A stretch of DNA of 64,000 nucleotides from Methanospirillum sp. (GTDB lineage: Archaea; Halobacteriota; Methanomicrobia; Methanomicrobiales; Methanospirillaceae). The DNA lies in contig JAAYEG010000065.1 in NCBI GenBank assembly GCA_012728895.1, forward strand, positions 7,538-71,537. The letters run 5' to 3'. The notes beneath the pieces were generated by a model. That model made no database searches. It saw nothing but the letters and a program-made list of their open reading frames with translations, and was not told the origin of the DNA. The position numbers and the translations under genes were made by a program. Each line of letters begins with the position of its first letter. Position 1 is the stretch's first letter. Positions 716-51,538 of the stretch are shown here, piece by piece.

Positions 716-1327
716 ATGGAGACCGTGGAAGCAGCAAACCCCGGCGAGGAAGAGACCCGGCCCGGCACGCCGCAGCTCCTCTTCAACCTCTACGATGTCG
801 GCGAGGTCGAGATCGAGGACATGGCACTCGATCGCTACGTGAACCTCCATTCGATGATCGTGCCGCACTCCTGCGGCAAGCTCACCGGCGGCGACTTCCA
901 GAAGAGCCAGATGCTGATCGTCGAGCGGCTGATCAACCGGCTGATGCAGACCGAGCACAACACGGGCAAGAAGCAGCTGGCCATCCGGATCGTCAAGGAC
1001 GCGTTCGCGATCATCGCGCAGAAGACCGACAAGAACCCCGTCCAGGTGCTGGTCGAGGCCGTCGCGAACGCGGGCCCCCGCGAGGAGACCGTCCGGCTCA
1101 AGTACGGCGGGATCAACGTCCCCAAGTCCGTCGACACCGCGCCCCAGCGGCGGGTCGACTCGGCGCTCAAGTTCATCACCGAGGGCACCCAGAAGAACTC
1201 CCGGGGCAAGAAGTCGGTCGCCGCGGCGCTCGCCGACGAGCTGATCGCGGCGTCGAAGGGCGACATGAGGGCCTACTCGGTCGCGAAGAAGGAAGAGCGC
1301 GAGCGGATTGCGAAGTCCGCCCGCTAG
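716..1327 (+). CDS. rps7: 30S ribosomal protein S7 (uS7)
   Basis: In-frame ATG at 716, 2 nt after the rps12 stop (METVEAAN...). Contains [15 protein letters not shown] and [22 protein letters not shown]. The 482 start in the ORF track is an Arg-rich extension overlapping rps12. Confidence 0.9.
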
Positions 1328-1355
1328 ATACCGATACCCCTTTTCCGGAACCACT

Positions 1356-34315: not shown

Positions 34316-35134
34316 ATGTTCAGGTTCGACGAGACCAGGACCTACCGGATGCCGCCCTTCTTCGGCGGAACCGCCCCGGCGGCTCCGGACTTCGCGGTCC
34401 GGAACCGCGACGCGACCGCCATGGCGTTCACCTGCACCACGGACGAAGAGATGCTCGCGCAGCACGTCCCCGAGTGCTTCGAGATCCTGCGGCCCGAGGT
34501 GGTCTACACCTTCGGCCAGCTCCGGGAGATCGACTGGCTCGCCGGGGGGCGGTACAACGTCGTCACGGCCGACGTGCCGGTCCGGTTCAACGGGACGCGT
34601 GACCGGCTCGAGGGGAACCTGAACCTGGTCACCTGGGAGAACCTGGCCACCCCGATCATCGGGGGGCGGGAAGAGAACGGCGTCCCGAAGATCTACGCCG
34701 AGATCCAGGACCTGCACGCGGGGGCAGCGGGCTACCTCGGCGCGCCCGACTACTTCACCAACGCGAGCTACGACGGCAACACCTTCGTCAGGATGGAGAT
34801 GCGGGACCCGGTCCCCGTGGAGGGGGAGCGGCTCGCGGCCCTGAAGGCCGCGATGGCCACCGTCAACCTCCTCTGCTGGCGCTACATCCCGAACGTCAGC
34901 GGCCCCGGGGCGGCGCTGAGCCAGCCGATCCTGTACCCCCAGGGGGCCGAGGTGCACAGCGCCTGGACGGGGACGGGCTCGGTCGAGTGGATCCGGCTCG
35001 CGCCCTGGCAGAACCCGATGCAGCACCACATCGTCAACGCCCTCGCGGACCTCCCGATCCTGGCGATGGCCCCCGTGATGCTGGTGCAGAGCACCGCCGT
35101 GCTGAAGCCGAGCCAGGGGCGGGTGCTGGAGTAG
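34316..35134 (+). CDS. acetoacetate decarboxylase (ADC) family protein 1
   Basis: DVPVRFNGTRDRLEGNLNLVTWENLATPIIGGREENGVPK aligns with the clostridial Adc region PVSFNG...EPAIAVGRELSAYPKK (Schiff-base Lys). C-terminal AWTGTGSVEW resembles AWTGPTRLQL. Confidence 0.8.
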   Translation: MFRFDETRTYRMPPFFGGTAPAAPDFAVRNRDATAMAFTCTTDEEMLAQHVPECFEILRPEVVYTFGQLREIDWLAGGRYNVVTADVPVRFNGTRDRLEGNLNLVTWENLATPIIGGREENGVPKIYAEIQDLHAGAAGYLGAPDYFTNASYDGNTFVRMEMRDPVPVEGERLAALKAAMATVNLLCWRYIPNVSGPGAALSQPILYPQGAEVHSAWTGTGSVEWIRLAPWQNPMQHHIVNALADLPILAMAPVMLVQSTAVLKPSQGRVLE

Positions 35135-35186
35135 GCCTGCCCGGGACGCGGGCGGGAAACACGATCCACCACCGGAGGACTATCAC

Positions 35187-36023
35187 ATGAACAACCAGGG
35201 CTACTACACGGACAGGATCTGCATCGTAACGGGCGCGAACTCCGGCATCGGGTACGCGCTCAGCGAGGAACTGCTGAAGCGGGGCGCGACCGTCTACCTG
35301 CTCGGGCGGGACCCGGCGAAGGTCGCGGCCGCCGCCGGCAAACTCTCGTCGCACGGGGACCGGGTGCGGACCCTCGTCGCGGACGTGACGGACTGGGAAC
35401 AGGTGCGGACGGCGATCGAGGGCGCGGCAGCGGAGGCCGGAAGGCTGGACATGCTCTTCAACAACGCCGGCATCGGCGGCACCCTGCAGTTCGAGAAGGC
35501 GACCCTCGAGGACTGGAAGAAGATCATCGAGACCAACGTCTGGAGCGTGGTCTACGGCGTGCACGCGGCCTTCCCGATCATGCTCCGGCAGGGCTCGGGC
35601 CACATCGTGAACACCAGCTCGGCGGCCGGCATCGTCCCCCCGCCGTTCCAGGCGCTCTACTCGCTCACCAAGTTCGGCGTCACCGGCATGACCGAGTGCC
35701 TGCGGTACGAGTTCGCGGAGAAGGGGCTCTTCTTCTCGACGATCTGTCCGACCAACATCGCGACGCCCATCTTCCAGAGGTCGGCCGACGGCCCGGTGAA
35801 CGAGAAAGCGCCGATCCCCGACGACGCCTATCCCGTGGACCGGGCGGCCGTCGAGATCCTGGACGCGGTCGCCGAGCGGAAGGGGGTCATCGTCGTGCCC
35901 GAGGAGCCGGGCACGGCTGTCTGGCGGGGATGGGCCGCGGGAGACCCCGAGACGGAGGCGTATCTCATGCAGATGGCGCACGACCGCCGGGTCGCGTACG
36001 AGACGAAGGGGTCGTACTTCTGA
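35187..36023 (+). CDS. short-chain dehydrogenase/reductase (SDR), type a, copy 1
   Basis: TGANSGIGYA, NNAG and SSAAG...YSLTK (Ser-Tyr-Lys). Confidence 0.9.
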   Translation: MNNQGYYTDRICIVTGANSGIGYALSEELLKRGATVYLLGRDPAKVAAAAGKLSSHGDRVRTLVADVTDWEQVRTAIEGAAAEAGRLDMLFNNAGIGGTLQFEKATLEDWKKIIETNVWSVVYGVHAAFPIMLRQGSGHIVNTSSAAGIVPPPFQALYSLTKFGVTGMTECLRYEFAEKGLFFSTICPTNIATPIFQRSADGPVNEKAPIPDDAYPVDRAAVEILDAVAERKGVIVVPEEPGTAVWRGWAAGDPETEAYLMQMAHDRRVAYETKGSYF

Positions 36024-36042
36024 GGGCGGCGCTGGGGGGACC

Positions 36043-36897
36043 ATGGAGACCGGCGACTACTACCAAAAAAAGGTCTGCATCGTCACGGGCGCGAACTCCG
36101 GCATTGGGTACGCGCTCTCGGAGGAGCTGCTGAAGCGCGGCGCGACCGTCTACCTGCTCGGGCGCAACGCGGCGAAGGTCGCGGAGGCGGCCGGAAAGCT
36201 CGCGGCGCACGGGGACCGGGTGCGCACCCTGGTCGCGGACGTGACGGACGGGGCGCAGATGCGGGCGGCCGTCGAGGGCGCGGCAGCGGAGGCCGGCCGG
36301 CTCGACCTGCTCTTCAACAACGCCGGCGTCGGCCTGACCGTCCCGTTCGAGCGGATCGGCCTTGACGAGATGCGGGCGGTCATCGACGCCAACCTCTGGA
36401 GCGTGCTCTACGGGACGCACGCCGCCGTGCCGATCATGCTCCGGCAGGGCTCGGGCCAGATCGTCAGCACCTCGTCGATCGGCGGGCTCATCCCGGTGCC
36501 GTTCCAGTCACTGTACAACACGACCAAGTTCGCCGTCACCGGGCTCTCCGAGTCGTTGCGGTACGAGTACGCGGCGCGGGGGATCTCGTTCTCGGCCGTC
36601 TGCCCGTTCTTCATCGCGTCGGCCATCTTCAGCAAGGGCCTCGACGGCAGCACGGGCGACCAGGGGATCCCCGCCGGCGCCTACCCCGCGGACCGTGCCG
36701 CGGCCTTCATCCTCGACCGCGTCGCCGAACGGCAGGGGATCATCGTCGTGCCCGAGGAGCCGTTCCTCGGGCTCTGGCGGGAGTACGCGAACGGCGATCC
36801 GGGCATGGAGGCGTTCATGCTGGAGACCGCGAGGATGCGTGGGCAGCAGGTGGAACGGGGCGAGACGCCGACGGCGGTGCCGCCGCTCCCCCCATGA
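36043..36897 (+). CDS. short-chain dehydrogenase/reductase (SDR), type b, copy 1
   Basis: TGANSGIGYA, NNAG and SSIGG...YNTTK. Confidence 0.9.
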   Translation: METGDYYQKKVCIVTGANSGIGYALSEELLKRGATVYLLGRNAAKVAEAAGKLAAHGDRVRTLVADVTDGAQMRAAVEGAAAEAGRLDLLFNNAGVGLTVPFERIGLDEMRAVIDANLWSVLYGTHAAVPIMLRQGSGQIVSTSSIGGLIPVPFQSLYNTTKFAVTGLSESLRYEYAARGISFSAVCPFFIASAIFSKGLDGSTGDQGIPAGAYPADRAAAFILDRVAERQGIIVVPEEPFLGLWREYANGDPGMEAFMLETARMRGQQVERGETPTAVPPLPP

Positions 36898-36934
36898 CGC
36901 CGGGAGGCGGACGACAGGAGTGGAGGTGATCCGT

Positions 36935-37729
36935 ATGTTCGAGATCGATGATTCCCTCGACTACACCATGCCGGCGCACTTCGGCGGCACGGAGCTGGTG
37001 CCCGGGCACGTGGCCACGCAGCGCGTGACCGCCCTGGTGATCGCGTACGAGACCGACCGGGCGCTCCTCGAGGCGTTCGTCCCCCGTGAGTTCACGCTCC
37101 GCGCCCCGGAGGTGCAGGTGATGTTCGCCACGTTCGCCGGGGTCAACTGGCTGGCCGGCGCGCGGTACAACCTGGTCAACGTCTCGGCGCCCGTCCGGTT
37201 CGACGGGAGCAGGGACCACCTGGACGGCGATTACACGCTCGTCACCTGGGAGAACAGCACCGAGCCGATCCTGCGGGGACGGGAGCAGTCCGGGGTCCCC
37301 AAGGTCTACGCGGAGATCCAGGACCTGCGCGAGGTCGGGCCGTATTACTCCACGAACGCGAGCTTCGCGGGAAACACCTTCCTCTCCCTGGAGTTCGAGT
37401 CCGCGGGCCCGCTGGCGGGAAGCGAGCTCGGGGAGGTGCGGGCCGGGATGGCGACCCTGAACACCATCGGCTGGCGGTACATCCCCCGGATCAACGGCCC
37501 GGGAGCGGACCTCTCGCAGTTCGTGCTCTTCCCGCAGGGGCTGGACCTCGAGCGGGCCGAGGCGGGGGCGGGGAGCCTGCGCTGGACCGCGCTCTCCTGG
37601 ATGCAGCACCCGACGCAGCACCGGATCATCGAGGGCCTGGCCTCTCTGCCGGTGGAGCGGGTGACGCGGGCGGTGCTGGGGGAGGGGACCGGCGTGCTCG
37701 ACCGCCTTGGTTCGCGCCTGCTCGAGTGA
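36935..37729 (+). CDS. acetoacetate decarboxylase (ADC) family protein 2
   Basis: ATG after GGAGGTGAT. SAPVRFDGSRDHLDGDYTLVTWENSTEPILRGREQSGVPK. Collinear with 34316..35134. Confidence 0.8.
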   Translation: MFEIDDSLDYTMPAHFGGTELVPGHVATQRVTALVIAYETDRALLEAFVPREFTLRAPEVQVMFATFAGVNWLAGARYNLVNVSAPVRFDGSRDHLDGDYTLVTWENSTEPILRGREQSGVPKVYAEIQDLREVGPYYSTNASFAGNTFLSLEFESAGPLAGSELGEVRAGMATLNTIGWRYIPRINGPGADLSQFVLFPQGLDLERAEAGAGSLRWTALSWMQHPTQHRIIEGLASLPVERVTRAVLGEGTGVLDRLGSRLLE

Positions 37730-37778
37730 CCCGGCGCCGAAAACCACGAGAATGAACCAGAACTCAAAGGAGAATACA

Positions 37779-38615
37779 ATGACCAACCAGGACTACTACA
37801 AGGAGAAGATCTGCATTGTCACGGGCGCGAACTCGGGGATCGGGTACGCGCTCAGCGAGGAACTGCTGAAGCGCGGCGCGACCGTCTACCTGCTCGGACG
37901 CGACCCGGGAAAGGTCGCGGCCGCCGCCAAAAAACTCTCGTCGCACGGGGACCGGGTGCGCACGCTCGTCGCGGACGTGACGGACGGGGCGCAGGTGCAG
38001 CGGGCCATCGAGGGCGCGGCGGCGGAAGCCGGCCGGCTGGACATGCTCTTCAACAACGCCGGCATCGGCGGGACCATGCAGTTCGAGAAGGCCACGCTCG
38101 ACGACTGGAAAAAGTTGATCGATACGAACATCTGGAGCGTCATCTACGGCGTCCACGCGGCCCTCCCGATCATGCTCCGGCAGGGCTCGGGCCATGTCGT
38201 GAACACCAGCTCGGCCGCGGGCATCTTCCCTCCGCCGTTCCAGGCGCTGTACTCACTATCCAAGTTCGGCGTCACCGGCATGACCGAGTGCCTCCGGTAC
38301 GAGTTCGCTGAGAAGGGGCTGGCCTTCTCGACGGTCTGTCCCTCCAACATCGCGACGCCGATCTTCCAGAAGTCTCCCGATGGCACGGTCCACGACCAGC
38401 TGCCGATACCCGACGACGCCTATCCCGCGGACAGGACGGCCGTCGAGATCCTGGACGCGGCCGCGGAGCGGAAAGGGGTCATCGTCGTGCCCGAGCAGCC
38501 GGGTACCGATATCTGGCGGGGATGGGCGGCGGGGGACCCCGGGACGGAGGCGTTCCTGATGCAGATGGCGCACGACCGGCGCGTCGCGTACGAGACGAAG
38601 GGGTCGTACTTCTGA
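37779..38615 (+). CDS. short-chain dehydrogenase/reductase (SDR), type a, copy 2
   Basis: MTNQDYYKEKICIVTGANSGIGYA after AAGGAG. YSLSK. Most residues identical to 35187..36023. Confidence 0.9.
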   Translation: MTNQDYYKEKICIVTGANSGIGYALSEELLKRGATVYLLGRDPGKVAAAAKKLSSHGDRVRTLVADVTDGAQVQRAIEGAAAEAGRLDMLFNNAGIGGTMQFEKATLDDWKKLIDTNIWSVIYGVHAALPIMLRQGSGHVVNTSSAAGIFPPPFQALYSLSKFGVTGMTECLRYEFAEKGLAFSTVCPSNIATPIFQKSPDGTVHDQLPIPDDAYPADRTAVEILDAAAERKGVIVVPEQPGTDIWRGWAAGDPGTEAFLMQMAHDRRVAYETKGSYF

Positions 38616-38640
38616 GCGCGGCCCGCGGAAGGGGACGACG

Positions 38641-39474
38641 ATGGACGCGAGCGACTACTACCGGGAGAAGATCTGCATCGTCACGGGCGCGAACTCCGGC
38701 ATCGGGTTCGCGCTCTCGGAGGAACTGCTCAAGCGCGGCGCGACCGTCTATATGCTCGGGCGCGACCCCGCGAAGGTCGCCGGCGCCGCCGGAAAACTCT
38801 CGTCGCACGGAAGCCGGGTGCGGACCCTCGTCGCGGACGTGACGGAGCAACAGCAGGTGCAGGCGGCGGTCGAGGGGGCGGCGGCGGAGGCCGGCCGGCT
38901 CGACATGCTCTTCAACAACGCGGGGATCTTCCGGCCCCAGCTCTACGAGACGGCCACGCTCGGGGACTGGCAGACCATGATCGAGACCAACCTCTGGAGC
39001 GTGATCTACGGCGTCCACGCCGCCCTGCCGATCATGCTCCGGCAGGGCTCGGGCCACGTCGTGAACACCGCGTCGGTGGCCGGCCTGGACCCGTTCCCGA
39101 TGCAGGAGATCTACAACACCACGAAGTACGCGGTCGTCGGGCTCTCCGAGAGCCTGCGGTACGGGTTCGCGGAGAAGGGGATCGCCTTCTCCGTGATCTG
39201 CCCCGGCGACATCGCGACCCCGATCTACTCCAAGGTGACCGACCGCGAGGGCCGCGGGACAGAGACCCCCGCCCACGCGTACCCCGCCGATGCCGCGGCC
39301 ACGTACTCCCTCGACCGGGTGGCGGAGCGGAAGGGGATCGTCGTCGTGCCCGAACAGCCGTACACCGACCTCTGGAGGGGGTACGTGGTGGGAGATCCGG
39401 GCGTGGAGGCCATGCTCGTCCGGATGGCGCACGACCGCAGGGTGCTGCTCGAGACAAGGGGGACGTATATCTGA
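38641..39474 (+). CDS. short-chain dehydrogenase/reductase (SDR), type b, copy 2
   Basis: TGANSGIGFA, NNAG and YNTTK. Confidence 0.9.
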   Translation: MDASDYYREKICIVTGANSGIGFALSEELLKRGATVYMLGRDPAKVAGAAGKLSSHGSRVRTLVADVTEQQQVQAAVEGAAAEAGRLDMLFNNAGIFRPQLYETATLGDWQTMIETNLWSVIYGVHAALPIMLRQGSGHVVNTASVAGLDPFPMQEIYNTTKYAVVGLSESLRYGFAEKGIAFSVICPGDIATPIYSKVTDREGRGTETPAHAYPADAAATYSLDRVAERKGIVVVPEQPYTDLWRGYVVGDPGVEAMLVRMAHDRRVLLETRGTYI

Positions 39475-41059: not shown

Positions 41060-41827
41060 ATGGAAACCAACTACCGCCGTATCGCGGCGATGGGTGCATG
41101 TCTCATCGCCGGTCTCCTGTTACTCTCAGCGGGGTGCGTCAGCCAGGATGCCCCGCTGAACCTCTATGTGGCCGCGGGCCTGAAGAAGCCGATGGACGTG
41201 GTAATCGCGAACTACAGCGCGTCCTCCGGGTCCGACATCACTCCGAACTACGGCCCCTCCGGTGGACTCTATGCCCAGATCAACCAGAGTCAGCCCTGTG
41301 ACCTCTATTACTCGGCCGACTACAGCCTGATCGAGAAACTCGAGGCGGAGGGCAGGGTGAGCGAGGCCAGGAAGCTCATGAAGGAGTTCGTCGTACTGGC
41401 CGTGTCCAAGACCGGGCGGGAGAAAGGAATCAGGAACGCCTCCGACCTGACAGCGCCCGGCACCGTCGTGGCAGTCGCCGATCAGAGCGCCCCCGTCGGC
41501 GTGTACTCCGAAAACGTGCTCCGGAACCTGGGGCTCCTGGATCAGCTCAACAGCATGGGCAACATCAGGACGCGTCCCGGCACCGTGAACCAGGTGGCCC
41601 TGATGGTCCAGAGCGATGAGGTGGACGCCGGCTTCACCTACAGCAGCACCGCCAACCTCTACGACCTGGATGTCGCAGAGAAGTACGGCTACGATCTGTC
41701 CGAGGAGATCGTCTTCGGCGCCGCGGTGATCAGGGGAGGGAACGAGGAGAAGGCGAAGGACTTCATGAATTTCGTCGATCAGAACATCGAGGAGTTCACA
41801 AAATACGGCTGGGAGATCTATGCGTAA
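41060..41827 (+). CDS. modA: molybdate (or tungstate) ABC transporter substrate-binding lipoprotein
   Basis: Lipobox LLLLSAGC. LYVAAGLKKPMD...PNYGPSGGLYAQI...DLYYSAD matches the ModA pattern AAxSL...SSGxLxxQI...DVFxSA. Confidence 0.8.
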   Translation: METNYRRIAAMGACLIAGLLLLSAGCVSQDAPLNLYVAAGLKKPMDVVIANYSASSGSDITPNYGPSGGLYAQINQSQPCDLYYSADYSLIEKLEAEGRVSEARKLMKEFVVLAVSKTGREKGIRNASDLTAPGTVVAVADQSAPVGVYSENVLRNLGLLDQLNSMGNIRTRPGTVNQVALMVQSDEVDAGFTYSSTANLYDLDVAEKYGYDLSEEIVFGAAVIRGGNEEKAKDFMNFVDQNIEEFTKYGWEIYA

Positions 41828-42608
41828 GGTGAGCATCTGGGAAGTACTCTTCGTCCCCCTCTTTTTCCTCCTGATCTTCTACCCGATTCTCGCCATCCTC
41901 GGCAACGTCACCCTCGATGGGATGGCAAAGACCTTCGGGGACCCGGTGTTCTGGGACGCCGTCAAGAATACCCTCGGAACGGCCTTCTGTGCGGCGCTTC
42001 TCGGCGTGCTGATGGCCCTCGGGTTCGCGTATTTCTACATCTTCCACCCCGGGACCGTCATCTACAGGATCGCCGATTTCATGAACGACCTCCCGATCGC
42101 CCTCCCCCACACCGTCGCGGGGCTCGCCCTTCTCCTGGCATTCGGCAGGAACATGTTCGGGTTCGCCGGGCCGACCGGGCTCGCGTTCACCCTTGTCGCT
42201 GTGATCCTGGCCATGTTCTTCGTCTCCTACCCCCTGGCAGCCCGGACCATCGCCTCGTCCGCGGAGGAGATCGACAGGGAGCTGATCAACGTCGCCAGGA
42301 GCCTCGGCGATTCGCCGCCCCGGGCCTACCGGCGGATCGTCATCCCGCTCCTGGGCGAGGCGATCTTCTCAGCGTTCGTGCTGGGATTCTCCCGCTCGCT
42401 CTCGGAGTTCGCCGCGGTCATCATGTTCGGCGGGAACGTGCCCGGGATGACCATGGTGCTCGCCAGTTACGTCTTCACCAAGGTGGAGGAGGGAGAGGTG
42501 AGCATGGCCGTCACGGCCAGTGCGTTCTGTATCCTCCTGTCACTGCTGCTCGTGCTCTTCCTGCGCCTGGAGGTGAAATTCCGTGCTCGAAGCAAGAGAA
42601 CTGCATAA
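41820..42608 (+). CDS. modB: molybdate ABC transporter permease
   Basis: Overlaps the modA end by 8 nt. About 5-6 TM helices. EAA-loop-like ARSLGDSPPRAYRRIVIPL. Confidence 0.8.
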   Translation: MRKVSIWEVLFVPLFFLLIFYPILAILGNVTLDGMAKTFGDPVFWDAVKNTLGTAFCAALLGVLMALGFAYFYIFHPGTVIYRIADFMNDLPIALPHTVAGLALLLAFGRNMFGFAGPTGLAFTLVAVILAMFFVSYPLAARTIASSAEEIDRELINVARSLGDSPPRAYRRIVIPLLGEAIFSAFVLGFSRSLSEFAAVIMFGGNVPGMTMVLASYVFTKVEEGEVSMAVTASAFCILLSLLLVLFLRLEVKFRARSKRTA

Positions 42609-43269
42609 GTCATTCGACGATCGCCACGTCCTCAAGGGGGTCACGTTCGGCGTCGGACCCGGGGAGATCAGGGTCCTGATCGGGCTGAACGGGTGTGGCA
42701 AGACCACGCTCCAGCGGATCATCACCGGGATCCTCGAGCCCGACTCGGGCTCGATCAGGATCGGGGGAGAGGAGATCACCGCCCTCCCCCCCGAGGAGCG
42801 GCAGCTGGGCTACGTTCCGCAGAACACCGGCCTGTTCCCTCACCTCTCCGTCCGTGAGAACATACTCTATTCTCTGAAGAACGGACGGGGCTCGGTGGAG
42901 TCCTTCCACGGGATGGTGGAGCTCCTGGGCCTCGAGACGTACCTCGACCTGAAGCCGAAACAGCTCTCGGGCGGGTACAGGAGCCGCGTCTCCCTGGCAC
43001 GCGCCCTCGCGTCCTCGCCGAGGGCGATGCTCCTCGATGAGCCCATAACGGAGGTTGACCGGGCAAAGAAGGAGTTCGTCCTCCCCCTCTTCCGAGAGAC
43101 CCTCCTGGGGTTGAAGATCCCCGTCCTCTACATCACCCACGACCCCTGGGAGGCCGGGGAGATCGGCACCTCCTTCTCGATCATGAAGGGCGGGGTGATG
43201 AGCCCGATCTCCTCCCCCGAAGAGGCCTTTGCCGTGATCCGGCAGGAGGCCAGGGACTCCGGGGAGTAG
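42583..43269 (+). CDS. modC: ABC transporter ATP-binding protein of the mod operon (short form, no TOBE domain)
   Basis: GTG start overlaps the modB end. Walker A GLNGCGKTT, signature LSGGYRSR, Walker B MLLDEP. Confidence 0.8.
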   Translation: MLEARELHKSFDDRHVLKGVTFGVGPGEIRVLIGLNGCGKTTLQRIITGILEPDSGSIRIGGEEITALPPEERQLGYVPQNTGLFPHLSVRENILYSLKNGRGSVESFHGMVELLGLETYLDLKPKQLSGGYRSRVSLARALASSPRAMLLDEPITEVDRAKKEFVLPLFRETLLGLKIPVLYITHDPWEAGEIGTSFSIMKGGVMSPISSPEEAFAVIRQEARDSGE

Positions 43270-44073: not shown

Positions 44074-44826
44074 TCAGTCGTTGAACCTCCGGTACAGCAG
44101 GTTCGCCGCGAACTGGAAGACGAGGATGAAGACGAGGAGGAGGCCGACGTCGACCGCCGGCCCGAAGTGGGCTTCGCCCGTGAAGCCTGCCCGGATCAGG
44201 TCGCTGCCGTAGGTCAGCGGCGAGAGGAGCGCGATGAACTGGCCGGCGGACGGGAGCTGGGAGAGCGGGATGAAGACGCCGGAGATGAAGATCAGCGGGA
44301 GCCGCACCAGGTTCAGCATGGACATGATGTCGCCCGGGCTCTCGGTCGGGTACGCGGCGAAGAGCGTACCCATGGTCGAAAAGCAGAAGGCCGTGAGGAC
44401 GACCCCGGCCACGAGGAAGGCGGGCCCGACGATCCCCGCCCGGAAGACGGCGAGGCCGGCGGCCAGCGGCACGAGGGCGATCCCGATGCTGTAGAGGAAC
44501 CCGCTCAGGCTCTCGCCCAGGACCACCGCGTGGAGCGAGATCGGGGCCGAGAGGAGGCGGTCGAAGGTGTTCATGCGCCGCTCGATCGGGATGGAGACCG
44601 GCTCGATCGAGGAGGCCGAGAAGAGGATGGTGATCGCCACGAGGCCGGGGACCAGGACCGTCGGCTCGGCCGGCCGGCCGACGGCGAACGCGAGGAACAT
44701 GAAGAGCGGAAAGAGCATGCCCGAGACGATGATGCCCGGCTTGAGGTACCAGATCAGGATGTCCTTCTTCGCGATCGCCCAGGCCGCGGCGAGCTCGGTC
44801 GAGACCTGCCCGAACCACCCCTCCAC
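44074..44826 (-). CDS. ABC-2 type transporter permease
   Basis: 250 aa with 6 hydrophobic helices. The start lies 1 nt after the upstream ATPase stop. Confidence 0.85.
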   Translation of the reverse strand: MEGWFGQVSTELAAAWAIAKKDILIWYLKPGIIVSGMLFPLFMFLAFAVGRPAEPTVLVPGLVAITILFSASSIEPVSIPIERRMNTFDRLLSAPISLHAVVLGESLSGFLYSIGIALVPLAAGLAVFRAGIVGPAFLVAGVVLTAFCFSTMGTLFAAYPTESPGDIMSMLNLVRLPLIFISGVFIPLSQLPSAGQFIALLSPLTYGSDLIRAGFTGEAHFGPAVDVGLLLVFILVFQFAANLLYRRFND

Positions 44827-44827
44827 C

Positions 44828-45784
44828 TCAGTCAGCGGTCGTCACCCCCTTCGTCCGGACGTCGAGCCCGGTCAGGCGGATGAAGACGTCCTCGAGGCTC
44901 GGGCCGCGGGTGTTCACGCTGATGACCCGGACTCCGGCGCGGGGCGCGAAGGCCATGACCTCCTCCAGCACCCCGGGCGGATCCTCGGTGATGAGCCGGA
45001 ACTTGTCGCCCTCCTTGCGCACCTCGCGGACGCGGGAGAGCGCCGCCAGGTCGTCCGCGGCCACCCGCCCGCCCGGGTGGAAGGCGACCTCGACCGACTG
45101 GACGGACTGGATCGTCTCCTTGAGCCGCTCGGGGGAGTCGATGGCCGCGATCCGGCCGTGGTCGATGATGGCCACCCGGTCGCAGGTCAGGTTCGCCTCC
45201 TCGATGTTGTGGGTCGTGAGGAAGACCGTGACCCCGTCCTCGTTCAGCCCCCGGATCACGTCCCGGATGATCAGGTTGCTCTGGACGTCCAGGCCCGAGG
45301 TCGGCTCGTCGAGGAAGAGGAGGCGGGGGGAGTTGACCAGGCCCATGGCGAGCGTGAGCCGCCGCTTCATCCCCTTCGAGAAGCCCCTGGTCCTGTCGTG
45401 TTGCCGGTCGGCGAGGTCGAAGACCTCGAGGAGCTCGGCGCCGCGCTTCTCGCGCTCGCGCCGGCCGACGCGGTAGAGCTCGGCCGCGAACATCAGGTTC
45501 CGCCAGGCCGAGAGGTCCGTGTAGATGTTCGAGGTCTCGTGCACGATCCCCATCTGCCGCCGGGCCGCGACCGTCTCGCGTACGATATCGTGGCCGAAGA
45601 TGCGGGCCGTCCCCGATGTCGGCGCCGTGATCCCGGTCAGGATACGGATCGTCGTCGTCTTGCCGGCGCCGTTCGGGCCGAGGAAGCCGAAGGTCTCGCC
45701 CTCGCCGACCGTGAAGGAGACGTCAGAGAGGGCCCGGAGGTCGCCAAAACGCTTCGAGATCCCGAGGGTTTCGATCGCATGCAT
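44828..45784 (-). CDS. ABC transporter ATP-binding protein (DrrA/daunorubicin-resistance-like)
   Basis: Walker A GPNGAGKTT, signature FSKGMKRRL, Walker B LLFLDEPTSGLD. A C-terminal accessory domain is present. Confidence 0.9.
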   Translation of the reverse strand: MHAIETLGISKRFGDLRALSDVSFTVGEGETFGFLGPNGAGKTTTIRILTGITAPTSGTARIFGHDIVRETVAARRQMGIVHETSNIYTDLSAWRNLMFAAELYRVGRREREKRGAELLEVFDLADRQHDRTRGFSKGMKRRLTLAMGLVNSPRLLFLDEPTSGLDVQSNLIIRDVIRGLNEDGVTVFLTTHNIEEANLTCDRVAIIDHGRIAAIDSPERLKETIQSVQSVEVAFHPGGRVAADDLAALSRVREVRKEGDKFRLITEDPPGVLEEVMAFAPRAGVRVISVNTRGPSLEDVFIRLTGLDVRTKGVTTAD

Positions 45785-46313
45785 GACAGGGCCAATCTCA
45801 CTCTTTCACGAGCACCTGCTAAGGGAAATAACATTCGACGGCGACATTGGCCGTGGTCTCCCTGCTGCGGGAAGCCTTCGTGACCGGAACCGTGGCAGCC
45901 GAACCGGATCGCGTGGGTCCAGGAGTCCGCGACGACGGCGCCGGGACGGGCGCCGGACCGCGCCTCGAGTACGGCCTTCGGCCGCACGGGGAGCCGTCCG
46001 GGTCCCTCGGAAGCGGCGTGACGTGGCCCGGCGGGGCGTCCGGGGCGTCCGCGCCGGCGTGTTCGGGAGAAGCGTCCCGTTCGCGAGGCAGAGCAGGAAG
46101 CCGTCGATCCCGCCCACGACCCGGTCCGACGCCTCGATGACCGCGTCCCCGTCCACGGATGCGCTCGCGTCGGTCCGGGCGACCGGGTCAAGGAGCGCGC
46201 CGGCGGGGTCGCCGGCGGGGACGAGGACCGGCGTCCCGAGGGGGAAGAGCGCCGAGGACGAGGTCGCGGATGGCTCCCCGGCCGGCGGACTGCGGAATTT
46301 GCTCTCCTGTCCG

Positions 46314-48083
46314 TCATCTCCCCTGCATCCTCTCGATGGCCCGTTCCAGCCCTGCAATCTCTCGCTCCCGCAGGACCGAGAGGTCGCGGCTCGCCTCCTC
46401 GTGCCGCCCCCGCTCCGCCACGGCCGCCGCGATCGCGCCGTGCGTCGCCAGGACCGCGTCGGCGAGCCCCCCGTCGAGCTCCGACGCGAAGGCCCGGAAG
46501 GCCGCGTCCAGATCCTGGATCATCGACCAGCGCAGGTTCTCGACGTTCGCCCGGACGAGGTTGCCGGCCTGCCGCCCGAGCCGTTCCCGGGCCCGCCGCT
46601 CGCGCAGCCGGCGCGGGAGGGCCCGCTCCATCACCTCGGCCGGGATCGGGACCAGCGGCGCCATCGAGAAGTCTCGCCGGACCCACCAGGCCCGCGACCC
46701 CTGCTCGAGCCGGTGCCCGGTCCCGGGCACGTGGTACGGCACGTCGAAGAGCTCGGCCGCGGCCGCCCGCACGGATCCGATCAGCCGCGCCGCGTTCTCG
46801 TGGTGGACCCGCAGGCGCCGGCCGAGCTCCTCGTCCAGCATCCCGGCCGTCGCCTCGATCTCCAGGGGAAACTCCTCGGCGACGGCCTCGGCCATGGCTT
46901 CGACCGCCGCCGCCTCGCTGCCGCTCTCCGCGAGTGCCGCGTCCGCGACCTCGACCAGGCGGGCCCCGTACCGCTCCCGGAGCGCGGCCGCGTGCGTCTC
47001 CACGAGCTCGGCCATCCGCTTCTGCTCCCCCGCGAGCATGTCCTTCGCGTACCGCCGCTGCTGCTCGGCCTCGGCCAGGGCCGCGTCGAACCGGGCGCTC
47101 TTCTCCTCCAGCTCCTCGCCCGGCATCGCGAGCGCCCAGAGCGAGAGCCGGAGCGCGAGCAGGACTTCGTCCGCGACCTCGCCCGCACGCTGCCGGACCG
47201 AGGCCTCGAGGACCTGCTGCTTCTCCTCCGCGAGGAAGGCGAGGAGGCGGTCGGCGATCCCGGCGCAGCCGCTCGCCCGCCACTCCGCCTCGTCGCCGCG
47301 CTCCCGGGCCGCGAGCCCGCGGCGGGCCGAGACCGGGTAGATGGGCACGTCCGAGGGAAGGTCCGCCTGCTCGGCGAGCACCCGCCGCAAAAAGCCCGTG
47401 GCGGCCGCGGCCTCGTCGTCGGAGAGGTAGTCGACCTTGTTCAGCACGAAGAAGAGGCGCGGGACACGGCCCTGCACCTTTTGGAGGAACTCGACCTCGA
47501 CCGCGGTGATTGGCGGGTCGGCCGAGAACAGGAAGAGGGCCGCGTCGCACTCTGCGAGATACGCCATCGTGGTCGCGGTATTGTGCGCGTACGTCGAGCC
47601 GATCCCGGGCGTGTCGATCAGCACCACGCCGTGCGCCAGCGCGGGTGACGGGTGGAGCACCTCGACCCCGGCCACGCCGAGCCGGTTTCCCGGGTTCGCC
47701 TCCTCCGTGACGTACCGGGCGAGGACGGCCGCGAGGGCCGCCGCGTCGGGGACGGCCGGCACCTCGTCGGTCCTGCCATCAGAGAAGTCGACCCGGACCT
47801 GCCGCATCGACCCCGCGCGGATCCGGGTCGGGATGGCCGTGAGCGGCACGACCGAGCTCGGGAGCACGGCCTCGCCGAGCAGGGCGTTCAGGAGCGTGGA
47901 CTTTCCGCGCTTGAACTGGCCGAGCACGGCCAGGTGAAACGATCCCGCGTCGAGCCGGAGGTCGAGCGCGTCGAGCCGGTCGGCCGCGGGTTCGAACTCC
48001 GGGCCGCAGGAACGGACGAGGGCGGCGAGACCAGCCAGGTCGGCCGCGAGCGAAGGGGGGTCTCTCGATGGTATCGGGTCCAC
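46314..48083 (-). CDS. dynamin-family (bacterial dynamin-like) large GTPase
   Basis: G1 GQFKRGKST, G3 LIDTPGIGS, G4 FVLNKVDYL, then a ~350-aa Ala/Glu/Arg-rich helical stalk. Start set at GTG 48083 after GAGGAGA. The alternative ATG at 48209 adds 42 aa. Confidence 0.8.
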   Translation of the reverse strand: MDPIPSRDPPSLAADLAGLAALVRSCGPEFEPAADRLDALDLRLDAGSFHLAVLGQFKRGKSTLLNALLGEAVLPSSVVPLTAIPTRIRAGSMRQVRVDFSDGRTDEVPAVPDAAALAAVLARYVTEEANPGNRLGVAGVEVLHPSPALAHGVVLIDTPGIGSTYAHNTATTMAYLAECDAALFLFSADPPITAVEVEFLQKVQGRVPRLFFVLNKVDYLSDDEAAAATGFLRRVLAEQADLPSDVPIYPVSARRGLAARERGDEAEWRASGCAGIADRLLAFLAEEKQQVLEASVRQRAGEVADEVLLALRLSLWALAMPGEELEEKSARFDAALAEAEQQRRYAKDMLAGEQKRMAELVETHAAALRERYGARLVEVADAALAESGSEAAAVEAMAEAVAEEFPLEIEATAGMLDEELGRRLRVHHENAARLIGSVRAAAAELFDVPYHVPGTGHRLEQGSRAWWVRRDFSMAPLVPIPAEVMERALPRRLRERRARERLGRQAGNLVRANVENLRWSMIQDLDAAFRAFASELDGGLADAVLATHGAIAAAVAERGRHEEASRDLSVLREREIAGLERAIERMQGR

Positions 48084-49100
48084 AGGTGTCTCCTCGGAAG
48101 GGGTAGGAGTTATCAGCGGGACCCGCGGTTGACGGTGAACTCCATCACCGATCGTACTCAGGCGTGCGGCAACGTCAATCTTCGCGCCGGAGCCGGTCGG
48201 AACCATCCCGGGACCCTCTGCGCAGGGCCCTGTGCGGCCAGCCTGGAGGGGGGGGGGCGATCCGCGAGATCGCGAAGGCCCGGTCCCTCGATTGTTTCGA
48301 GCTCCCCGAGCAGGGAGAGCCCGGCGAGGACGTGGCCGGCCAGGAAGACTCTCGCAAACGAGCCGCCCGTTCCCCGGAGAAACCGGGTGAGTGCGACCCT
48401 TGCGCGGTCGGCCGCGACAGGCCCCCGCCGCCATCGGGCGACGAGGGCGTGCCGGGTATCGGCCGCGTCGGCTCGGGGAGCCGCCAGAAGCGGTTCCCGC
48501 CCACGCCGCAGCCGTTGCGGCGGCACACCGGGGGACCGCCGGCTGTCCGGGGAGAAGGGGCAGCGTGCGTGCCCCGGCAGGAGTCACCCGCCTCGCGGGG
48601 GTCCCGGGGCGGACCCCATCGCCTCCGGTGACCGATGGCGCGGTACCGGGACAAGGCTGTCCCCCTGCTGGAACGCCCTCCTCGCCTGGTGATGATGAAC
48701 GTGCAATCGGCGCCGAGGGGGCCGTGGTCACCATGAGGTCGACCCGTCACGGGCACGCTCCGCCGGAAGAGATCGCGACAGGCCTTGAGGGCGTCCCTGT
48801 CCTGATCCCGGCCCCCGGCATGACGATCGAAAACCCTGGCCCGGGGGATGCCGGCGCATGAACGAGGGGTGACGGCATCGATGAGAGGAAGAAGATCCCT
48901 GCTACCGCCTGGAGCAGGTGAACCGTCCCCTCGCGCCCTCATCGCGAGTCGGTCACTCGAGGGGCTCCGCCTCGCGACAGGCGGTACCAGCGACGCGATA
49001 CGGAGGAGCGCCGATGCGCGCCCTGCCGATCCTCACGTCGATGGGATCCGGCCCACGGATGGAGAAACCTACAAGCGTACTGACGTTGTGGGGATCTACG

Positions 49101-49955
49101 ATGATCTATTTTACCGAAAACGAGATCGACCGATTGATTGAAGACGACGTTCCGGCAGGGGACTTGACAACAACACTGCTGGAACTGTCTGGGAAGAAGG
49201 GTTCGATCTCATTGACCGCCAGAAACGATATGATCGCGTGCTGTACCGAGGAAGCAGCACGGCTTTATAAAAAAGCGGGACTCGAGATCCGGTATGCGGT
49301 CGCTTCGGGAACCAGGTTGCAGACAGGCGAAAAATTGCTCGAAGCGGAGGGCGATGCAAGTGCCATCCATCTGATCTGGCGTACAGGGGATGCCATGATC
49401 GAATACGCATCGGGCATTGCAGGGCGCACGAGGCAACTGGTCGATGCCGCCCGGGCGGAAAACCCCCTGGTTTCGGTCGCCGGAACCCGGAAACACCCCC
49501 CGTTTGTAAAAAAGATAGCGTTAAAAGCGCTTGTGGCGGGTGGCGGGGTGCCGCACCGTACCGGGCTATCCGACACCGTGCTCGTTTTCCGAGAACATCT
49601 TCTTTTCACGGGAGGCTACGAGGGGTTGGCCGGCGTGGTGCGTTGCATCAAAAATAAGCAGCACGAACGGAAAATTGTCGTTGAAGCCCATACCGGAGAG
49701 GAAGCCCTGATGATAGCCAGCTCCGGAGCTGACGCCGTCCAACTGGACAAGATGGCCCAGGAACCTTTTGTCGAATGCGCCAGGCAGTGCCGTGCCATCA
49801 ATCCCGATATCACCATGATAGCAGCGGGGGGCATCAACGGAACCAATGCGGCAGCCTATGCCAGAGCCGGGGCCGATGTGCTGGTTACTTCGTGGATGTA
49901 TTATGCTCCGCCAGCCGATGTCAGGGCGGAGATCGTTCCAATACCCCTTTCCTGA
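49101..49955 (+). CDS. modD: ModD protein (quinolinate phosphoribosyltransferase-fold, molybdenum-transport associated)
   Basis: MIYFTENEIDRLIEDDVPAGDLTT...AGTRKHPPFVKK...VPHRTGLSD...AAGGIN. Markedly lower GC3 than its neighbours. Confidence 0.75.
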   Translation: MIYFTENEIDRLIEDDVPAGDLTTTLLELSGKKGSISLTARNDMIACCTEEAARLYKKAGLEIRYAVASGTRLQTGEKLLEAEGDASAIHLIWRTGDAMIEYASGIAGRTRQLVDAARAENPLVSVAGTRKHPPFVKKIALKALVAGGGVPHRTGLSDTVLVFREHLLFTGGYEGLAGVVRCIKNKQHERKIVVEAHTGEEALMIASSGADAVQLDKMAQEPFVECARQCRAINPDITMIAAGGINGTNAAAYARAGADVLVTSWMYYAPPADVRAEIVPIPLS

Positions 49956-50308
49956 ACGGGGCACAATTTTCACGACCTGTGATGATGCGGTGCGGCAGGC
50001 CTTCCCGCTGCCGCACCCCCTTCCCAGGACCCGCGCATCGATCTCTCTCGAGCGGATCATCGTTCTGTGCCAGGGGCATCCCGTGTGTTTGGTCCAATGG
50101 ATATGCCTCTTTCGGGGTTCCTCGTCGGTGCGGCACACCATCAACCGTGCACCGGTTTCACCCGGTCGACGTTCCGACCCCCGTGTGCGGTGACGAGCGA
50201 GGCCGTGCCTCGCCGGAAGAACGTCCCGGCCGGCGTACCGGGCTCCGTTGCCCCATCGCCTCCTCGATCCGGAGGAGGTGGTGGTACCGCTCGACCCGCC
50301 CGCCGCGG

Positions 50309-51538
50309 TCACCGTCCCGGGCCGTCGACCCAGCGCGAGAGCCGGCCGGCCTCCCGCACCGCCTCGGCGAGCGGGAGGCGGATCCCGGAGCGGCGGGCGT
50401 TCCGGTAGAACCGCCAGCGGTCCCGGAGCCCCAGGGCCCCTCCGCCGCCGGCGGCCAGCAGGCGGTCGAGGGTCTCCCGCTCCCCTCTCATCCACCCGAA
50501 CCTCGCGAGGACGGCCCGGGTGTAGCCCTCCGGGTCCCCCAGGCGATCGGCGAGGAGCCGGGCGCACTCCAGGGAGGGTAGGATTCCCTCGCCGGTGAAG
50601 GGCCCGACGGTCCCGATCGACTCCCCGGCGCCCACGACCAGGCGGGGGCCGCCGTCCCCGGGGGGCCGCCTGGAGAAGAACGGGGTCGCGTAATACGGGG
50701 ACGAGACGCGGACCGCCCCCCCGCAGGCGCAGCACCGGGCGAGACGCGGGCCGCCGCCGGCCCATCCCCGGAGCGAGCGCTCCAGCAGGGTTTCCAGGTC
50801 GGCCGGCCCTATCGCGCCCACCCCGACGTGATAGTCCGTCCCGCCCAGGGGGAAGGCCCAGGTGTACCCGAACCCGGGAACGGCGCTCCCCCGGACGGCG
50901 GGCCCGGGGAGGCGGTCCCCTGGCCCCTCCGCCCTGACGCGGCACTGGAGGGTCCGCATCACGAGGTCCGACCGGCAGGGGGGGAGGAGGGCCCGGGCGA
51001 TCCCCGTCGCATCGACGACCAGGTCGAACTCCCCCGCCTCGGGGGGAGCGAGGAACCGGCGGTGGACCCGGACCGTCCGGACGAGGTCGCGGACGAGGCG
51101 CGGCTTCTCGATCGTGAGAAGCGGGGTCCGGGCCCGCAGCCCCTCGATCACCAGGGTCTCCATCGGCGCGAGGGCGTAGTCGTCGAGCGCGAGGCCGACC
51201 GCGTCGAGGTACGGGCCGAGGCGGCGGGAGACACCCCACCCGCACGGCCGGAGGCCGCACCGCGTGGCATGCGCCATCGGGTCGTAGAGGTCGGGGTCGA
51301 TCCCCCGTGCCGAGAGGAGGGCCGCGAGGTAGGCGCCGGCGGGCCCGGCGCCGGCGATGGCGATGTTCAGGGCCCCACCTCCCGGGGGGTTCTCCGTGAC
51401 CGGCCGAGATCTTCCATCGGTGCGACGTCCTGTTGCCCTGGTCCGAGAAAAAGAGGTCGGTCCGAACCGGCGTCCGGGACGGGGGGACCCTCCCCGATCG
51501 CGGCACGGCGCCGGCCCGTGGACGGGTCGAGGTCTCAA
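50309..51538 (-). CDS. FAD-dependent oxidoreductase, geranylgeranyl-reductase-like
   Basis: NIAIAGAGPAGAYLA (GxGxxG), DLVVDATG and VVGAGESIGTVGPFTGEGI. The first ~55 codons of the ATG-51538 ORF are Arg/Pro/Gly noise, so the true start is uncertain (see finding at 51384). Confidence 0.75.
   Translation of the reverse strand: MRPRPVHGPAPCRDRGGSPRPGRRFGPTSFSRTRATGRRTDGRSRPVTENPPGGGALNIAIAGAGPAGAYLAALLSARGIDPDLYDPMAHATRCGLRPCGWGVSRRLGPYLDAVGLALDDYALAPMETLVIEGLRARTPLLTIEKPRLVRDLVRTVRVHRRFLAPPEAGEFDLVVDATGIARALLPPCRSDLVMRTLQCRVRAEGPGDRLPGPAVRGSAVPGFGYTWAFPLGGTDYHVGVGAIGPADLETLLERSLRGWAGGGPRLARCCACGGAVRVSSPYYATPFFSRRPPGDGGPRLVVGAGESIGTVGPFTGEGILPSLECARLLADRLGDPEGYTRAVLARFGWMRGERETLDRLLAAGGGGALGLRDRWRFYRNARRSGIRLPLAEAVREAGRLSRWVDGPGR

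Follow-up and report, generated by a model that had tools for sequence, protein, structure and literature searches.

The 64-kb stretch of DNA analyzed here (64,000 nucleotides (nt) of Methanospirillum sp. contig JAAYEG010000065.1, referred to as the window) carries on its minus strand a gene for a dynamin-like protein (DLP). The coding sequence (CDS) occupies 46314–48083, stop codon included, and encodes 589 amino acids (aa) from a GTG start. When the whole window was scanned with Rfam, the sole match above the gathering score was the fluoride riboswitch RF01734, located at 48097–48158 on the DLP strand. The 62-nt aptamer lies in the 5' leader and ends 13 nt ahead of the DLP start codon. Genes for an ABC ATPase and an ABC-2 permease (44074–45784) were found downstream of the DLP gene and a stretch poor in open reading frames (ORFs) upstream, and the initial annotation of this DNA had placed the gene correctly between the two. 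By comparing the locus with its relatives, we were able to show an apparently riboswitch-gated GTPase of the BDLP/IniA class embedded in a fluoride regulon.

The ORF ending at 46314 in the initial annotation is real, and the motifs GQFKRGKST, DTPG and NKVD noted in it were all found in the 589-aa protein, at residues 55–63, 157–160 and 215–218, respectively. The size of 590–630 aa proposed there held at the low end of its range, while the proposed 5' end at 48209 did not, the start being GTG 48083. Read from its first in-frame start, the ORF has 806 aa, with conservation confined to the last 589. Homologues of 587–620 aa aligned with the DLP from residue 1, and relatives at 70–97% identity had 589–602 aa and covered 99–100% of the 589-aa query. 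Close relatives have 589 aa, and in five related genomes (L001–L005) an ATG stands exactly at the position of the window's GTG. The codon-position GC content of the gene (0.79/0.49/0.94) is a coding signature in a genome of 69% GC. Upstream of a short conserved box, the DNA of the five related genomes showed no alignment to the window. Because the length and ATG position of the relatives match and the sequence 5' of the box is unalignable, the CDS was set at 46314–48083. ATG 48209, which is 126 nt too far upstream, and ATG 48734 were rejected as starts, since the riboswitch and the promoter-like box separate them from the conserved N terminus. Bases 48097–48158, which had been counted within the ORF, are those of the fluoride riboswitch aptamer.

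The window and contig L081 from the same species differed at 37 positions in 17,770 nt, 36 of which fell within 193 nt at the 5' end of the coding sequence (window 47891–48083, minus strand, versus L081:8001–8193). The differences include GTG versus ATG as the start codon and 16 amino-acid changes in residues 1–46. This is an apparent mosaic or recombination tract, sharply localized directly 3' of the riboswitch.

The window aptamer scored 53.5 bits with the Rfam model, whose gathering score is 34 (E = 5e-12 over the 64 kb), and matched model positions 1–64 of 64; with the covariance model built in this study it scored 62 bits. Its P2 helix has only 3 bp. Compared with the highly conserved (upper-case) positions of the Rfam consensus, it has one mismatch, an A for G in GAUGAC (GAUAAC). 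This A pairs with the U of GGAGUU, and the pair concerned, 21–91, covaries, with U-A alternating with C-G. Because the A belongs to this covarying pair, it would extend the pseudoknot and do no damage to it. The element at 48097–48158 can be regarded as a standard member of the fluoride riboswitch class, and fluoride binding is predicted.

Among 108 distinct aptamers, 98.8% of the P1, P2 and pseudoknot cells formed standard pairs, and the pseudoknot that joins the P1 loop (GGAGU) to the 3' tail (ACUCC) was paired in 100% of its cells. Compensatory double changes occurred at three of the six pseudoknot pairs (GC/AU 84/23, CG/UA 55/42 and AU/GC 95/2), and P1 pair 12–23 was UA in 39, GC in 31 and CG in 27 of the aptamers. 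The covariance model used for the search held no pseudoknot. None of 500 shuffles reached the observed values, and pairing with slid partners was 38–63%. This covariation indicates that the aptamers in DLP loci are under selection for the known fold. Two aptamer types were found to share genomes, a DLP type with GGAGU...ACUCC and an enolase type with GAAGU...ACUUC (for example L012:5846-5907 versus L012:4620-4681). They differ by a compensatory pseudoknot change, and the Shine–Dalgarno sequence (SD) in DLP leaders matches the DLP-type strand.

For the relatives, one genome per GTDB species was scanned; at least 554 species encode a relative of the DLP, and the best 80 loci were analyzed. A regular expression found an aptamer upstream of most of the 80 loci, and a covariance model from 43 aptamers then found 120 aptamers in 0.93 Mb. 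In nine loci chosen from both domains, Rfam's curated model confirmed 20 of 20 aptamers. Linkage was defined as the presence of an aptamer at most 400 nt upstream of the DLP gene and in its orientation, and three of the 80 loci had too little upstream DNA. Linkage was present in 68 of the 77 testable species-level loci (88%), comprising all 27 archaeal loci and 41 of the 50 bacterial ones. In three of the 77, the aptamer lay 0.5–2.4 kb upstream of the DLP gene. Genomes usually carry only a handful of fluoride riboswitches, and chance linkage is ruled out for that reason. The arrangement of aptamer followed by DLP gene is thus conserved across archaea and bacteria, inside fluoride gene clusters. 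As judged from the leaders, the linkage spans two domains of life and two predicted types of expression platform, translational and terminator-based. The crcB motif, as the class was named, has been described as joining only the thiamine pyrophosphate (TPP) class in spanning both domains (PMC2864571).

Behind the remaining aptamers of the analyzed loci lay 45 ORFs, including those for enolase (11), Na+/H+ exchanger (4), prenyltransferase-like (4), HEAT-repeat (4) and CrcB (2) proteins, and one each for MutS domain V (MutS_V), DUF190, Usp and the fluoroacetyl-CoA thioesterase family FlK. Enolase, Na+/H+ antiporters, exporters and MutS are recognized gene classes of the fluoride riboswitch (PMC11139923; PMC2864571). 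A Thermodesulfobacteriota genome has, after the aptamer, genes for the DLP, a HEAT-repeat protein, a 244-aa protein, enolase, a 139-aa protein, a Na+/H+ exchanger and Usp, in this order. In Methanoculleus sp. Wushi-C6, an aptamer-prenyltransferase-like-enolase unit stands directly upstream of the aptamer-DLP unit. An enolase homologue was present within 6 kb of the DLP gene in 37 of the 80 loci, including 23 of the 28 counted as archaeal.

A second, divergent DLP was found in Methanoregula-type relatives (L014, L021, L022, L025, L030, L033, L037, L039 and L048), 2–6 kb upstream on the opposite strand; that of L014 (L014:3427-5466, minus strand) has about 680 aa and 31–38% identity in the G domain. 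It lies directly behind its own aptamer in L014 and beyond an aptamer-controlled enolase gene in L022. DLP pairs, a common arrangement among bacterial dynamins, thus occur in this family too, and fluoride control seems to extend to at least some of the second copies. In the window's clade, the second copy was either lost or never present. In bacteria (L084:9830-12765, plus strand, and equivalents), the uncharacterized proteins tightly coupled to the DLP were a 139-aa zinc-ribbon and HEAT-repeat protein, a Cys-rich 244-aa protein and another 139-aa protein. The 244-aa protein has no Pfam match and was the most frequent tight downstream neighbor of the DLP (7 tight, 2 loose). The 139-aa neighbor without HEAT repeats also has no Pfam match, and all three coupled proteins are soluble by hydropathy. 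The three are candidate new members of the fluoride regulon or candidate DLP partners. In Methanolinea-type archaea (L015:7764-8696, L049, L054, L057 and L027; plus strand), the DLP stop overlaps by 4 nt the start of a gene for a prenyltransferase-like alpha-alpha toroid protein of about 300 aa, and this overlap suggests translational coupling. Of the 28 loci counted as archaeal, 12 contained a toroid homologue, and in some cases this gene directly followed an aptamer of its own (for example L082:4830-5687).

The protein encoded by the window gene matched Pfam Dynamin_N (PF00350) over the entire profile (1–168 of 168, E = 1.9e-28), with 100 bits where the cutoff is 27. Motif conservation was judged from 108 aligned homologues, and the same alignment was the input for AlphaFold2. 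In this alignment the G1 (GQFKRGKST), G3 (DTPG) and G4 (NKVD) motifs were invariant or nearly so. The AlphaFold2 model had a mean predicted local distance difference test (pLDDT) score of 80.8 and a predicted template modeling (pTM) score of 0.71. In the model, N-terminal helices (12–46) are followed by the G domain (about 49–270), helices running out (288–445) and helices running back (491–588), with a loop (446–483) linking the stalk halves; the long helices of the outgoing half are 288–319, 322–387 and 390–445. The stalk leaves and returns, and helices stand before and after the G domain, as in the BDLP/mitofusin class. The C-terminal part is helical and contains 18% A, 10% R and 10% E, which agrees with the long Ala/Glu/Arg-rich helical region of the initial annotation and supplies the stalk that it left to structure prediction.

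In a Foldseek search of the PDB, the model was closest to IniA (6J72, E = 5e-21), and Nostoc BDLP (2J68, E = 2e-19) ranked second; the alignments had about 600–690 columns. The Campylobacter DLP pair, mitofusins and SynDLP came after these, and LeoA was at rank 32. The sequence profile search of the PDB was headed by BDLP, the Campylobacter DLP pair, IniA and mitofusins, with no LeoA sequence at E ≤ 0.001; BDLP 2J68 was matched at E = 6e-38 (query 19–442 versus chain 29–478). The NCBIfam models of Era, Der, DynA, CrfC and LeoA all scored far below their own cutoffs. On profile and model evidence, the protein is assigned as a true bacterial-dynamin-like GTPase of the BDLP/IniA class, as the initial annotation had proposed, and GTP hydrolysis and membrane remodeling are the activities predicted from this class. 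No transmembrane (TM) segment was found in it (maximum 19-residue hydropathy 1.4), so a BDLP-type paddle is absent, and the earlier remark that neither was to be seen stands. The 38-residue loop at the stalk tip contains Trp, Tyr and Arg and was modeled at pLDDT <50; W467 was invariant and P449, Y450 and V468 were conserved among the 108 homologues. It sits where IniA has a long loop with a lipid-interacting segment (PMC6715688), and its position and conservation make it a candidate membrane-binding element.

In the minimum free energy (MFE) fold of the window leader, CUCCU (48105–48109) pairs with AGGAG (48090–48094), and in the predicted apo fold CGGGUCC.GC, which comprises the P2 3' side and loop, pairs with GUGGACCCG, which holds the start codon. 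Neither pairing can coexist with the folded aptamer. Binding of fluoride should therefore open the ribosome-binding site, and a translational ON switch is predicted. The SD paired with ACUCCU in five of the six leaders of the window's clade. Direct control of the DLP gene by the riboswitch is well supported, and it is probable that the window switch acts on translation, turning expression ON. The other archaeal leaders, of 36–110 nt, have SDs of the (A)GGAG(G)AGU type, which repeat the GGAGU strand of the aptamer. Many bacterial relatives have an intrinsic terminator 3' of the aptamer, for example CCCACC...GGUGGGUUUUUU, and terminators overlapping the crcB motif were described for the class from the outset (PMC2864571). 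The conserved box upstream of the window aptamer is possibly a putative archaeal promoter of the BRE/TATA type (BRE, B recognition element), in which case the transcript would start just before the aptamer.

We consider it probable that the locus is a one-gene fluoride-response unit, consisting of a putative promoter box, an aptamer, a short expression platform and a BDLP/IniA-class GTPase, with a role in membrane maintenance. Without fluoride, ACUCCU and the P2 3' side would pair with GAGGAG and the GUG start and block the ribosome-binding site. With fluoride, the Mg2+/F- complex would lock the GGAGU:ACUCC pseudoknot, leaving the ribosome-binding site free for translation. The soluble DLP would then dock on the cytoplasmic membrane via the conserved aromatic and basic stalk-tip loop, and its GTP-driven self-assembly would remodel, seal or pinch off damaged membrane. 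In this way envelope integrity would be kept, together with the ion gradients for fluoride export and pH homeostasis, as by IniA and DynA under cell-envelope stress. Taken by itself, a role of the DLP in membrane maintenance under fluoride is an analogy to which we give slightly less than even chances. It was favored because IniA and DynA, the best-understood stress-linked prokaryotic DLPs, act in this manner. IniA is induced by cell-wall drugs, binds the membrane via its loop, mediates fission and has been proposed to maintain plasma-membrane integrity (PMC6715688), and DynA clusters at damaged membrane and delays lysis (PMC8844932; PMC12998192). It was also favored because fluoride is reported to trigger lysis in diverse bacteria (PMC12700350) and because fluoride export and pH homeostasis rely on an intact, energized membrane (PMC11139923). 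The stress function raised in the initial annotation is supported, with fluoride, absent from that annotation, as the stress; the defense function raised beside it is not.

Several results weigh against this interpretation. No aptamer was found in six of the 77 testable loci. The folding energy of the window leader was no better than that of shuffled sequences (z = -0.76), and the 42-nt sub-fold was also non-significant. A crude automated MFE test was applied to 27 archaeal leaders (6 from the window's clade and 21 longer ones); only 5 of the 21 longer leaders showed pairing of the SD with the pseudoknot strand, and the SD stayed paired in 16 of the 27 folds with the aptamer nucleotides excluded. 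What is secure in the translational model is therefore limited to complementarity of sequence, and to the window's clade. The membrane role of the tip loop rests on position and conservation, in a part of the model where confidence is low, and we know of no direct membrane damage by fluoride.

A small GTPase of the Era/EngA/YeeP type fused to an unrelated helical tail would explain why parts of the G domain weakly match models of Era, Der, HydF and EF-Tu, as well as the labels "GTPase Era" or "EngB" that some JGI records give to homologues. The scores, however, were 35.8 bits against a cutoff of 237 for Era, 32.2 against 307 for Der and 16.2 against 116 for era TIGR00436, and the protein has neither a KH domain nor a second G domain. 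With Dynamin_N matched in full length, a full-length fold like those of IniA and BDLP, and a BDLP profile match that begins in the N-terminal helices and reaches far into the stalk, up to residue 442, this identity was refuted and has a negligible chance of being correct; the dynamin class stands. A defense dynamin of the LeoABC or DynA kind, acquired horizontally and incidentally preceded by a riboswitch, is extremely improbable. The PADLOC profiles of LeoA (E = 7e-24) and LeoBC (E = 4e-12) did match the DLP, DynA protects B. subtilis against phage (PMC8844932), and the subfamily occurs in both domains with at least one inter-domain transfer. The PADLOC matches reflect general DLP homology, however, and the absence of LeoA at E ≤ 0.001 from the profile search of the PDB speaks against this reading. 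The window has no LeoBC-like partner and no defense neighborhood, the neighbors being transporters and metabolic genes, and in relatives fluoride-regulon genes. No full-length relative was found in 50,697 phage or 72,556 plasmid records, where partial matches covered at most 55% of the query, and the riboswitch linkage kept in 88% of loci and the unexceptional GC content of the gene in the window also argue against it.

The upstream aptamer might instead be a non-functional relic, and the DLP a housekeeping protein of membrane, division or vesicle formation. Decayed elements do lie nearby (aptamer 48571–48632, a prenyltransferase-like pseudogene and an enolase remnant), and IniA and IniC mediate vesicle release in mycobacteria (PMC10240201). 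Unlike the nearby relic, however, the aptamer at 48097–48158 is well above the gathering threshold with one consensus mismatch, and aptamer, SD and start codon are kept among relatives whose upstream DNA is otherwise unalignable, so we regard this reading as very unlikely. The main alternative explanation concerns dosage. With Mg2+ or Al3+, fluoride forms MgF3- and AlF4-, which mimic the gamma-phosphate and trap GTPases on GDP, and the G-domain dimers of the dynamin family are classic targets; because of this trapping, the cell may need extra or replacement DLP. Under fluoride, more DLP or a more tolerant DLP would be made, or the DLP would soak up inhibitory complexes. The fluoride regulon is known to include over-produced, fluoride-inhibited enzymes, among them enolase and pyrophosphatase (PMC11139923). 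Enolase genes under riboswitch control recur in the DLP loci, and the catalytic G motifs of the DLP are all intact. Compensation needs a constitutive demand, yet the riboswitch would keep the gene off without fluoride. No constitutive paralogue was found in the window, and the second DLP of Methanoregula-type loci is also in a fluoride-controlled unit. The sequence gives no sign of fluoride tolerance and the idea of a sink has no precedent, and the dosage explanation appears unlikely. Beyond membrane maintenance at this locus, the whole DLP subfamily, which at least several hundred species among Methanomicrobiales and anaerobic bacteria possess, may, tentatively and with the chances somewhat against it, be a dedicated and hitherto unrecognized effector of the fluoride stress response. 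If so, fluoride toxicity would have a membrane-integrity component that is countered by a membrane-remodeling machine. In the boldest version of this proposal, GDP with MgF3- or AlF4- would lock the G-domain dimers, so that the toxic ion would both induce and stabilize a sealing or tethering assembly.

The nearest relatives of the DLP came from Methanoregulaceae and other Methanomicrobiales metagenome-assembled genomes (MAGs), and NCBI labels these homologues "dynamin family protein". In a midpoint-rooted neighbor-joining tree without bootstrap, sequences of Methanoregula, Methanolinea and Methanomicrobiaceae grouped by lineage, the bacterial sequences formed one cluster, and the window's clade was a divergent archaeal branch. 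The GC content of the DLP gene (0.72–0.74) was slightly above that of most of the window (usually 0.62–0.74) and no outlier. The occurrence of the subfamily in archaea and bacteria implies at least one inter-domain transfer. These data are consistent with a gene that has long resided in Methanomicrobiales and with one or more old transfers between the domains. The horizontal acquisition previously suggested is, as a recent event, not supported by the GC content or by the grouping along Methanomicrobiales lineages, and an old inter-domain transfer alone is plausible. The statement that DLPs are sparse in archaea is only partly supported, as DLPs in Methanomicrobia had already been reported (Bramkamp 2012, as cited in PMC3791482) and the subfamily is common there. 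In L017 (CAYYEN010000338.1, labeled uncultured Spirochaetaceae), the DLP nests in Methanomicrobiaceae, and aptamer, SD and start region are nearly identical to those of L007. This is probably an archaeal contig mis-binned in a bacterial MAG, or else a very recent transfer.

No second DLP, intact enolase, CrcB or Na+/H+ exchanger was found in the 64-kb window with the cluster proteins of relatives as queries. Likewise, tblastn with the DLP itself and with the second DLP of L014 gave no further DLP in the window, in agreement with the single copy initially reported. In the second aptamer-like sequence (48571–48632), P1 and its loop are intact (GGCGAUGGGGUCCGCC), and the conserved CUGAUGA is shortened to UGA; it is a probable relic. 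The prenyltransferase-like fragment retains GGYCFYRLPEP and NxADTRYAL... motifs, with about 515 nt of L001 missing in the window, and its intact homologues match Pfam Prenyltrans and are associated with fluoride clusters in relatives. Together, 48302–48632 looks like a decayed riboswitch-gene unit of a once larger fluoride cluster. At 50215–50307 (minus strand) there is a C-terminal remnant of about 30 residues resembling the riboswitch-controlled enolase of L001 and L004 (58–74% identity, E of about 1e-4), just after the stop of ORF 50309–51538 and in a different frame. A match to sR39 snoRNA at 48323–48363 (13.9 bits against a cutoff of 50) was taken as chance.

The ABC-2 exporter was rejected as an operon partner, since it is adjacent only in the same-species contig L081, other relatives differ downstream, and a 530-nt spacer intervenes. 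This spacer (45785–46313, about 72% GC) contained no convincing ORF and no T-run terminator and had no counterpart outside the same-species contig; the only T4 run (45749) falls inside the ABC ATPase CDS. In L002 and L005 a MutS_V gene stands behind the DLP, and tblastn gave no signal for a relic of this gene in the spacer. An AT-richer patch, GAATGTTATTTCCC, precedes the ABC start by about 45 nt and may be the ABC operon's own promoter. An ABC importer (41060–43269, plus strand; periplasmic-binding protein, permease and ATPase, matching SBP_bac_11, BPD_transp_1 and ABC_tran) and a gene of the quinolinate-phosphoribosyltransferase fold (48918–49955, plus strand), divergent from the DLP, appear unrelated to fluoride and seem to interrupt the decayed cluster. 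Elsewhere in the window, ORF 1308–3548 matched aEF-2, an elongation factor of archaea, at equivalog level (1165 bits; cutoff, 738), which identifies the window as archaeal, and four ORFs at 34316–39474 (plus strand) matched short-chain dehydrogenase/reductase models. Three DNA copies about 77–80% identical (35201–38616; blastn of L081) suggest a recent tandem duplication there.

Table 1. Coordinates of the features at the DLP locus of the window, with the evidence for each.
Feature	Position	Strand	Evidence
Dynamin-like GTPase CDS	46314..48083	-	ORF; homologues align from residue 1; ATG at the same position in L001-L005; codon-position GC
Dynamin_N GTPase domain, residues 51-217	47433..47933	-	PF00350, E = 1.9e-28; conservation of G1/G3/G4 motifs
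First half of predicted helical stalk, residues 273-445	46749..47267	-	AlphaFold2 pLDDT mostly 85-93; Foldseek alignments to IniA and BDLP
Predicted disordered stalk-tip loop, residues 446-483	46635..46748	-	pLDDT <50 at 454-475, between two long stalk helices; conservation
Returning half of predicted helical stalk, residues 484-588 (helices 491-560 and 562-588)	46320..46634	-	AlphaFold2
Fluoride riboswitch aptamer (crcB motif, RF01734)	48097..48158	-	Rfam 53.5 bits; own model 62 bits; covariation of P1 and pseudoknot
Predicted expression platform: Shine–Dalgarno GAGGAG (48090-48095), 6-nt spacer, GTG (48081-48083)	48081..48095	-	Sequence; conserved in L001-L005
ACUCCU, pseudoknot 3' strand of the aptamer, predicted to double as anti-Shine–Dalgarno	48105..48110	-	MFE fold of leader
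Conserved box CGAAG(A/G)TTGACG (CGAAGNTTGAC), about 35 nt upstream of P1	48173..48184	-	The one block 5' of the aptamer that is conserved among five close relatives
Degenerate second fluoride-aptamer-like sequence	48571..48632	-	Own model 28.3 bits, E = 6e-6; below Rfam gathering score
Frameshifted, internally deleted prenyltransferase-like (alpha-alpha toroid) fragment	48302..48541	-	tblastx versus L001 and L004, two frames

A link between DLPs and fluoride was not found in about 8 million full texts, a coverage that leaves out the original 2012 gene tables of the fluoride riboswitch, where a bare listing is possible. No GTPase was found among the riboswitch-associated genes in a 2024 review of fluoride resistance or in a 2020 riboswitch review. 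What appears to be new is that a known riboswitch class controls a gene family not previously tied to it, and that a known protein family gains a physiological cue. The roles of prokaryotic DLPs are largely unknown, as are most of their inducing signals; here the signal can be read from the sequence, and the riboswitch linkage gives the subfamily a simple testable inducer, millimolar NaF. The co-regulated HEAT-repeat/zinc-ribbon protein, Cys-rich 244-aa protein, prenyltransferase-like toroid and second DLP are flagged as uncharacterized candidate partners. The locus also adds an archaeal gene under riboswitch control, in a domain with few known riboswitch classes, and it may be relevant to how methanogenic and syntrophic communities withstand the fluoride set free when organofluorine pollutants are defluorinated.

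Among known systems, IniA of Mycobacterium (6J72/6J73) is the best fold match. Like the window DLP, it is single-headed, has about 600 aa and consists of a GTPase domain with neck and trunk bundles; it has a long loop and no TM paddle at the membrane-facing end of the trunk and is induced by specific chemical stress (PMC6715688). It differs in sharing only about 20% sequence identity, in belonging to Actinobacteria and not archaea, and in being induced by isoniazid and ethambutol and not by fluoride. IniA is also encoded in the iniBAC operon with a second DLP, IniC, and the promoter is under the protein IniR (PMC5760070) and not under a riboswitch. No IniB- or IniC-like neighbor was found beside the window DLP, so the likeness is one of structure and not of iniBAC membership. 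We know of no riboswitch or fluoride link for BDLP of Nostoc punctiforme (2J68/2J69/2W6D), the closest solved structure by profile, in which N-terminal helices, G domain and stalk follow one another as in the window DLP. BDLP exceeds the window DLP by about 100 residues and inserts a hydrophobic helical-hairpin paddle into lipid (PMC6715688), whereas the window DLP has no hydrophobic segment and a disordered conserved loop instead.

The profiles of LeoA and LeoBC of enterotoxigenic E. coli in PADLOC match the DLP, including part of the stalk. That system has several tandem DLP genes, whereas the window has one, and the NCBIfam LeoA/HP0731 model gave 12 bits against a cutoff of 325. DynA of Bacillus subtilis resembles the proposed role in its membrane surveillance under pore-forming antibiotic and phage stress, and the NCBIfam DynA model matches the G domain (E = 4e-19). 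DynA (NF052648), however, is two-headed with about 1190 aa, while the window DLP has one G domain and reached 68 bits against a cutoff of 1600 over positions 42–206 of 1187. The regulon of the fluoride riboswitch (RF01734) is alike in having the aptamer in the 5' leader, an ON-type platform and neighboring genes of recognized classes. The published classes comprise exporters, Na+/H+ antiporters, pyrophosphatase, HAD phosphatases, enolase, formate hydrogen lyase, chorismate mutase, MutS and K+/Cl- transport, without a GTPase or dynamin (PMC11139923; PMC2864571). The DLP described here would add a membrane-remodeling protein to a fluoride regulon that otherwise consists of exporters, ion antiporters and fluoride-sensitive enzymes.

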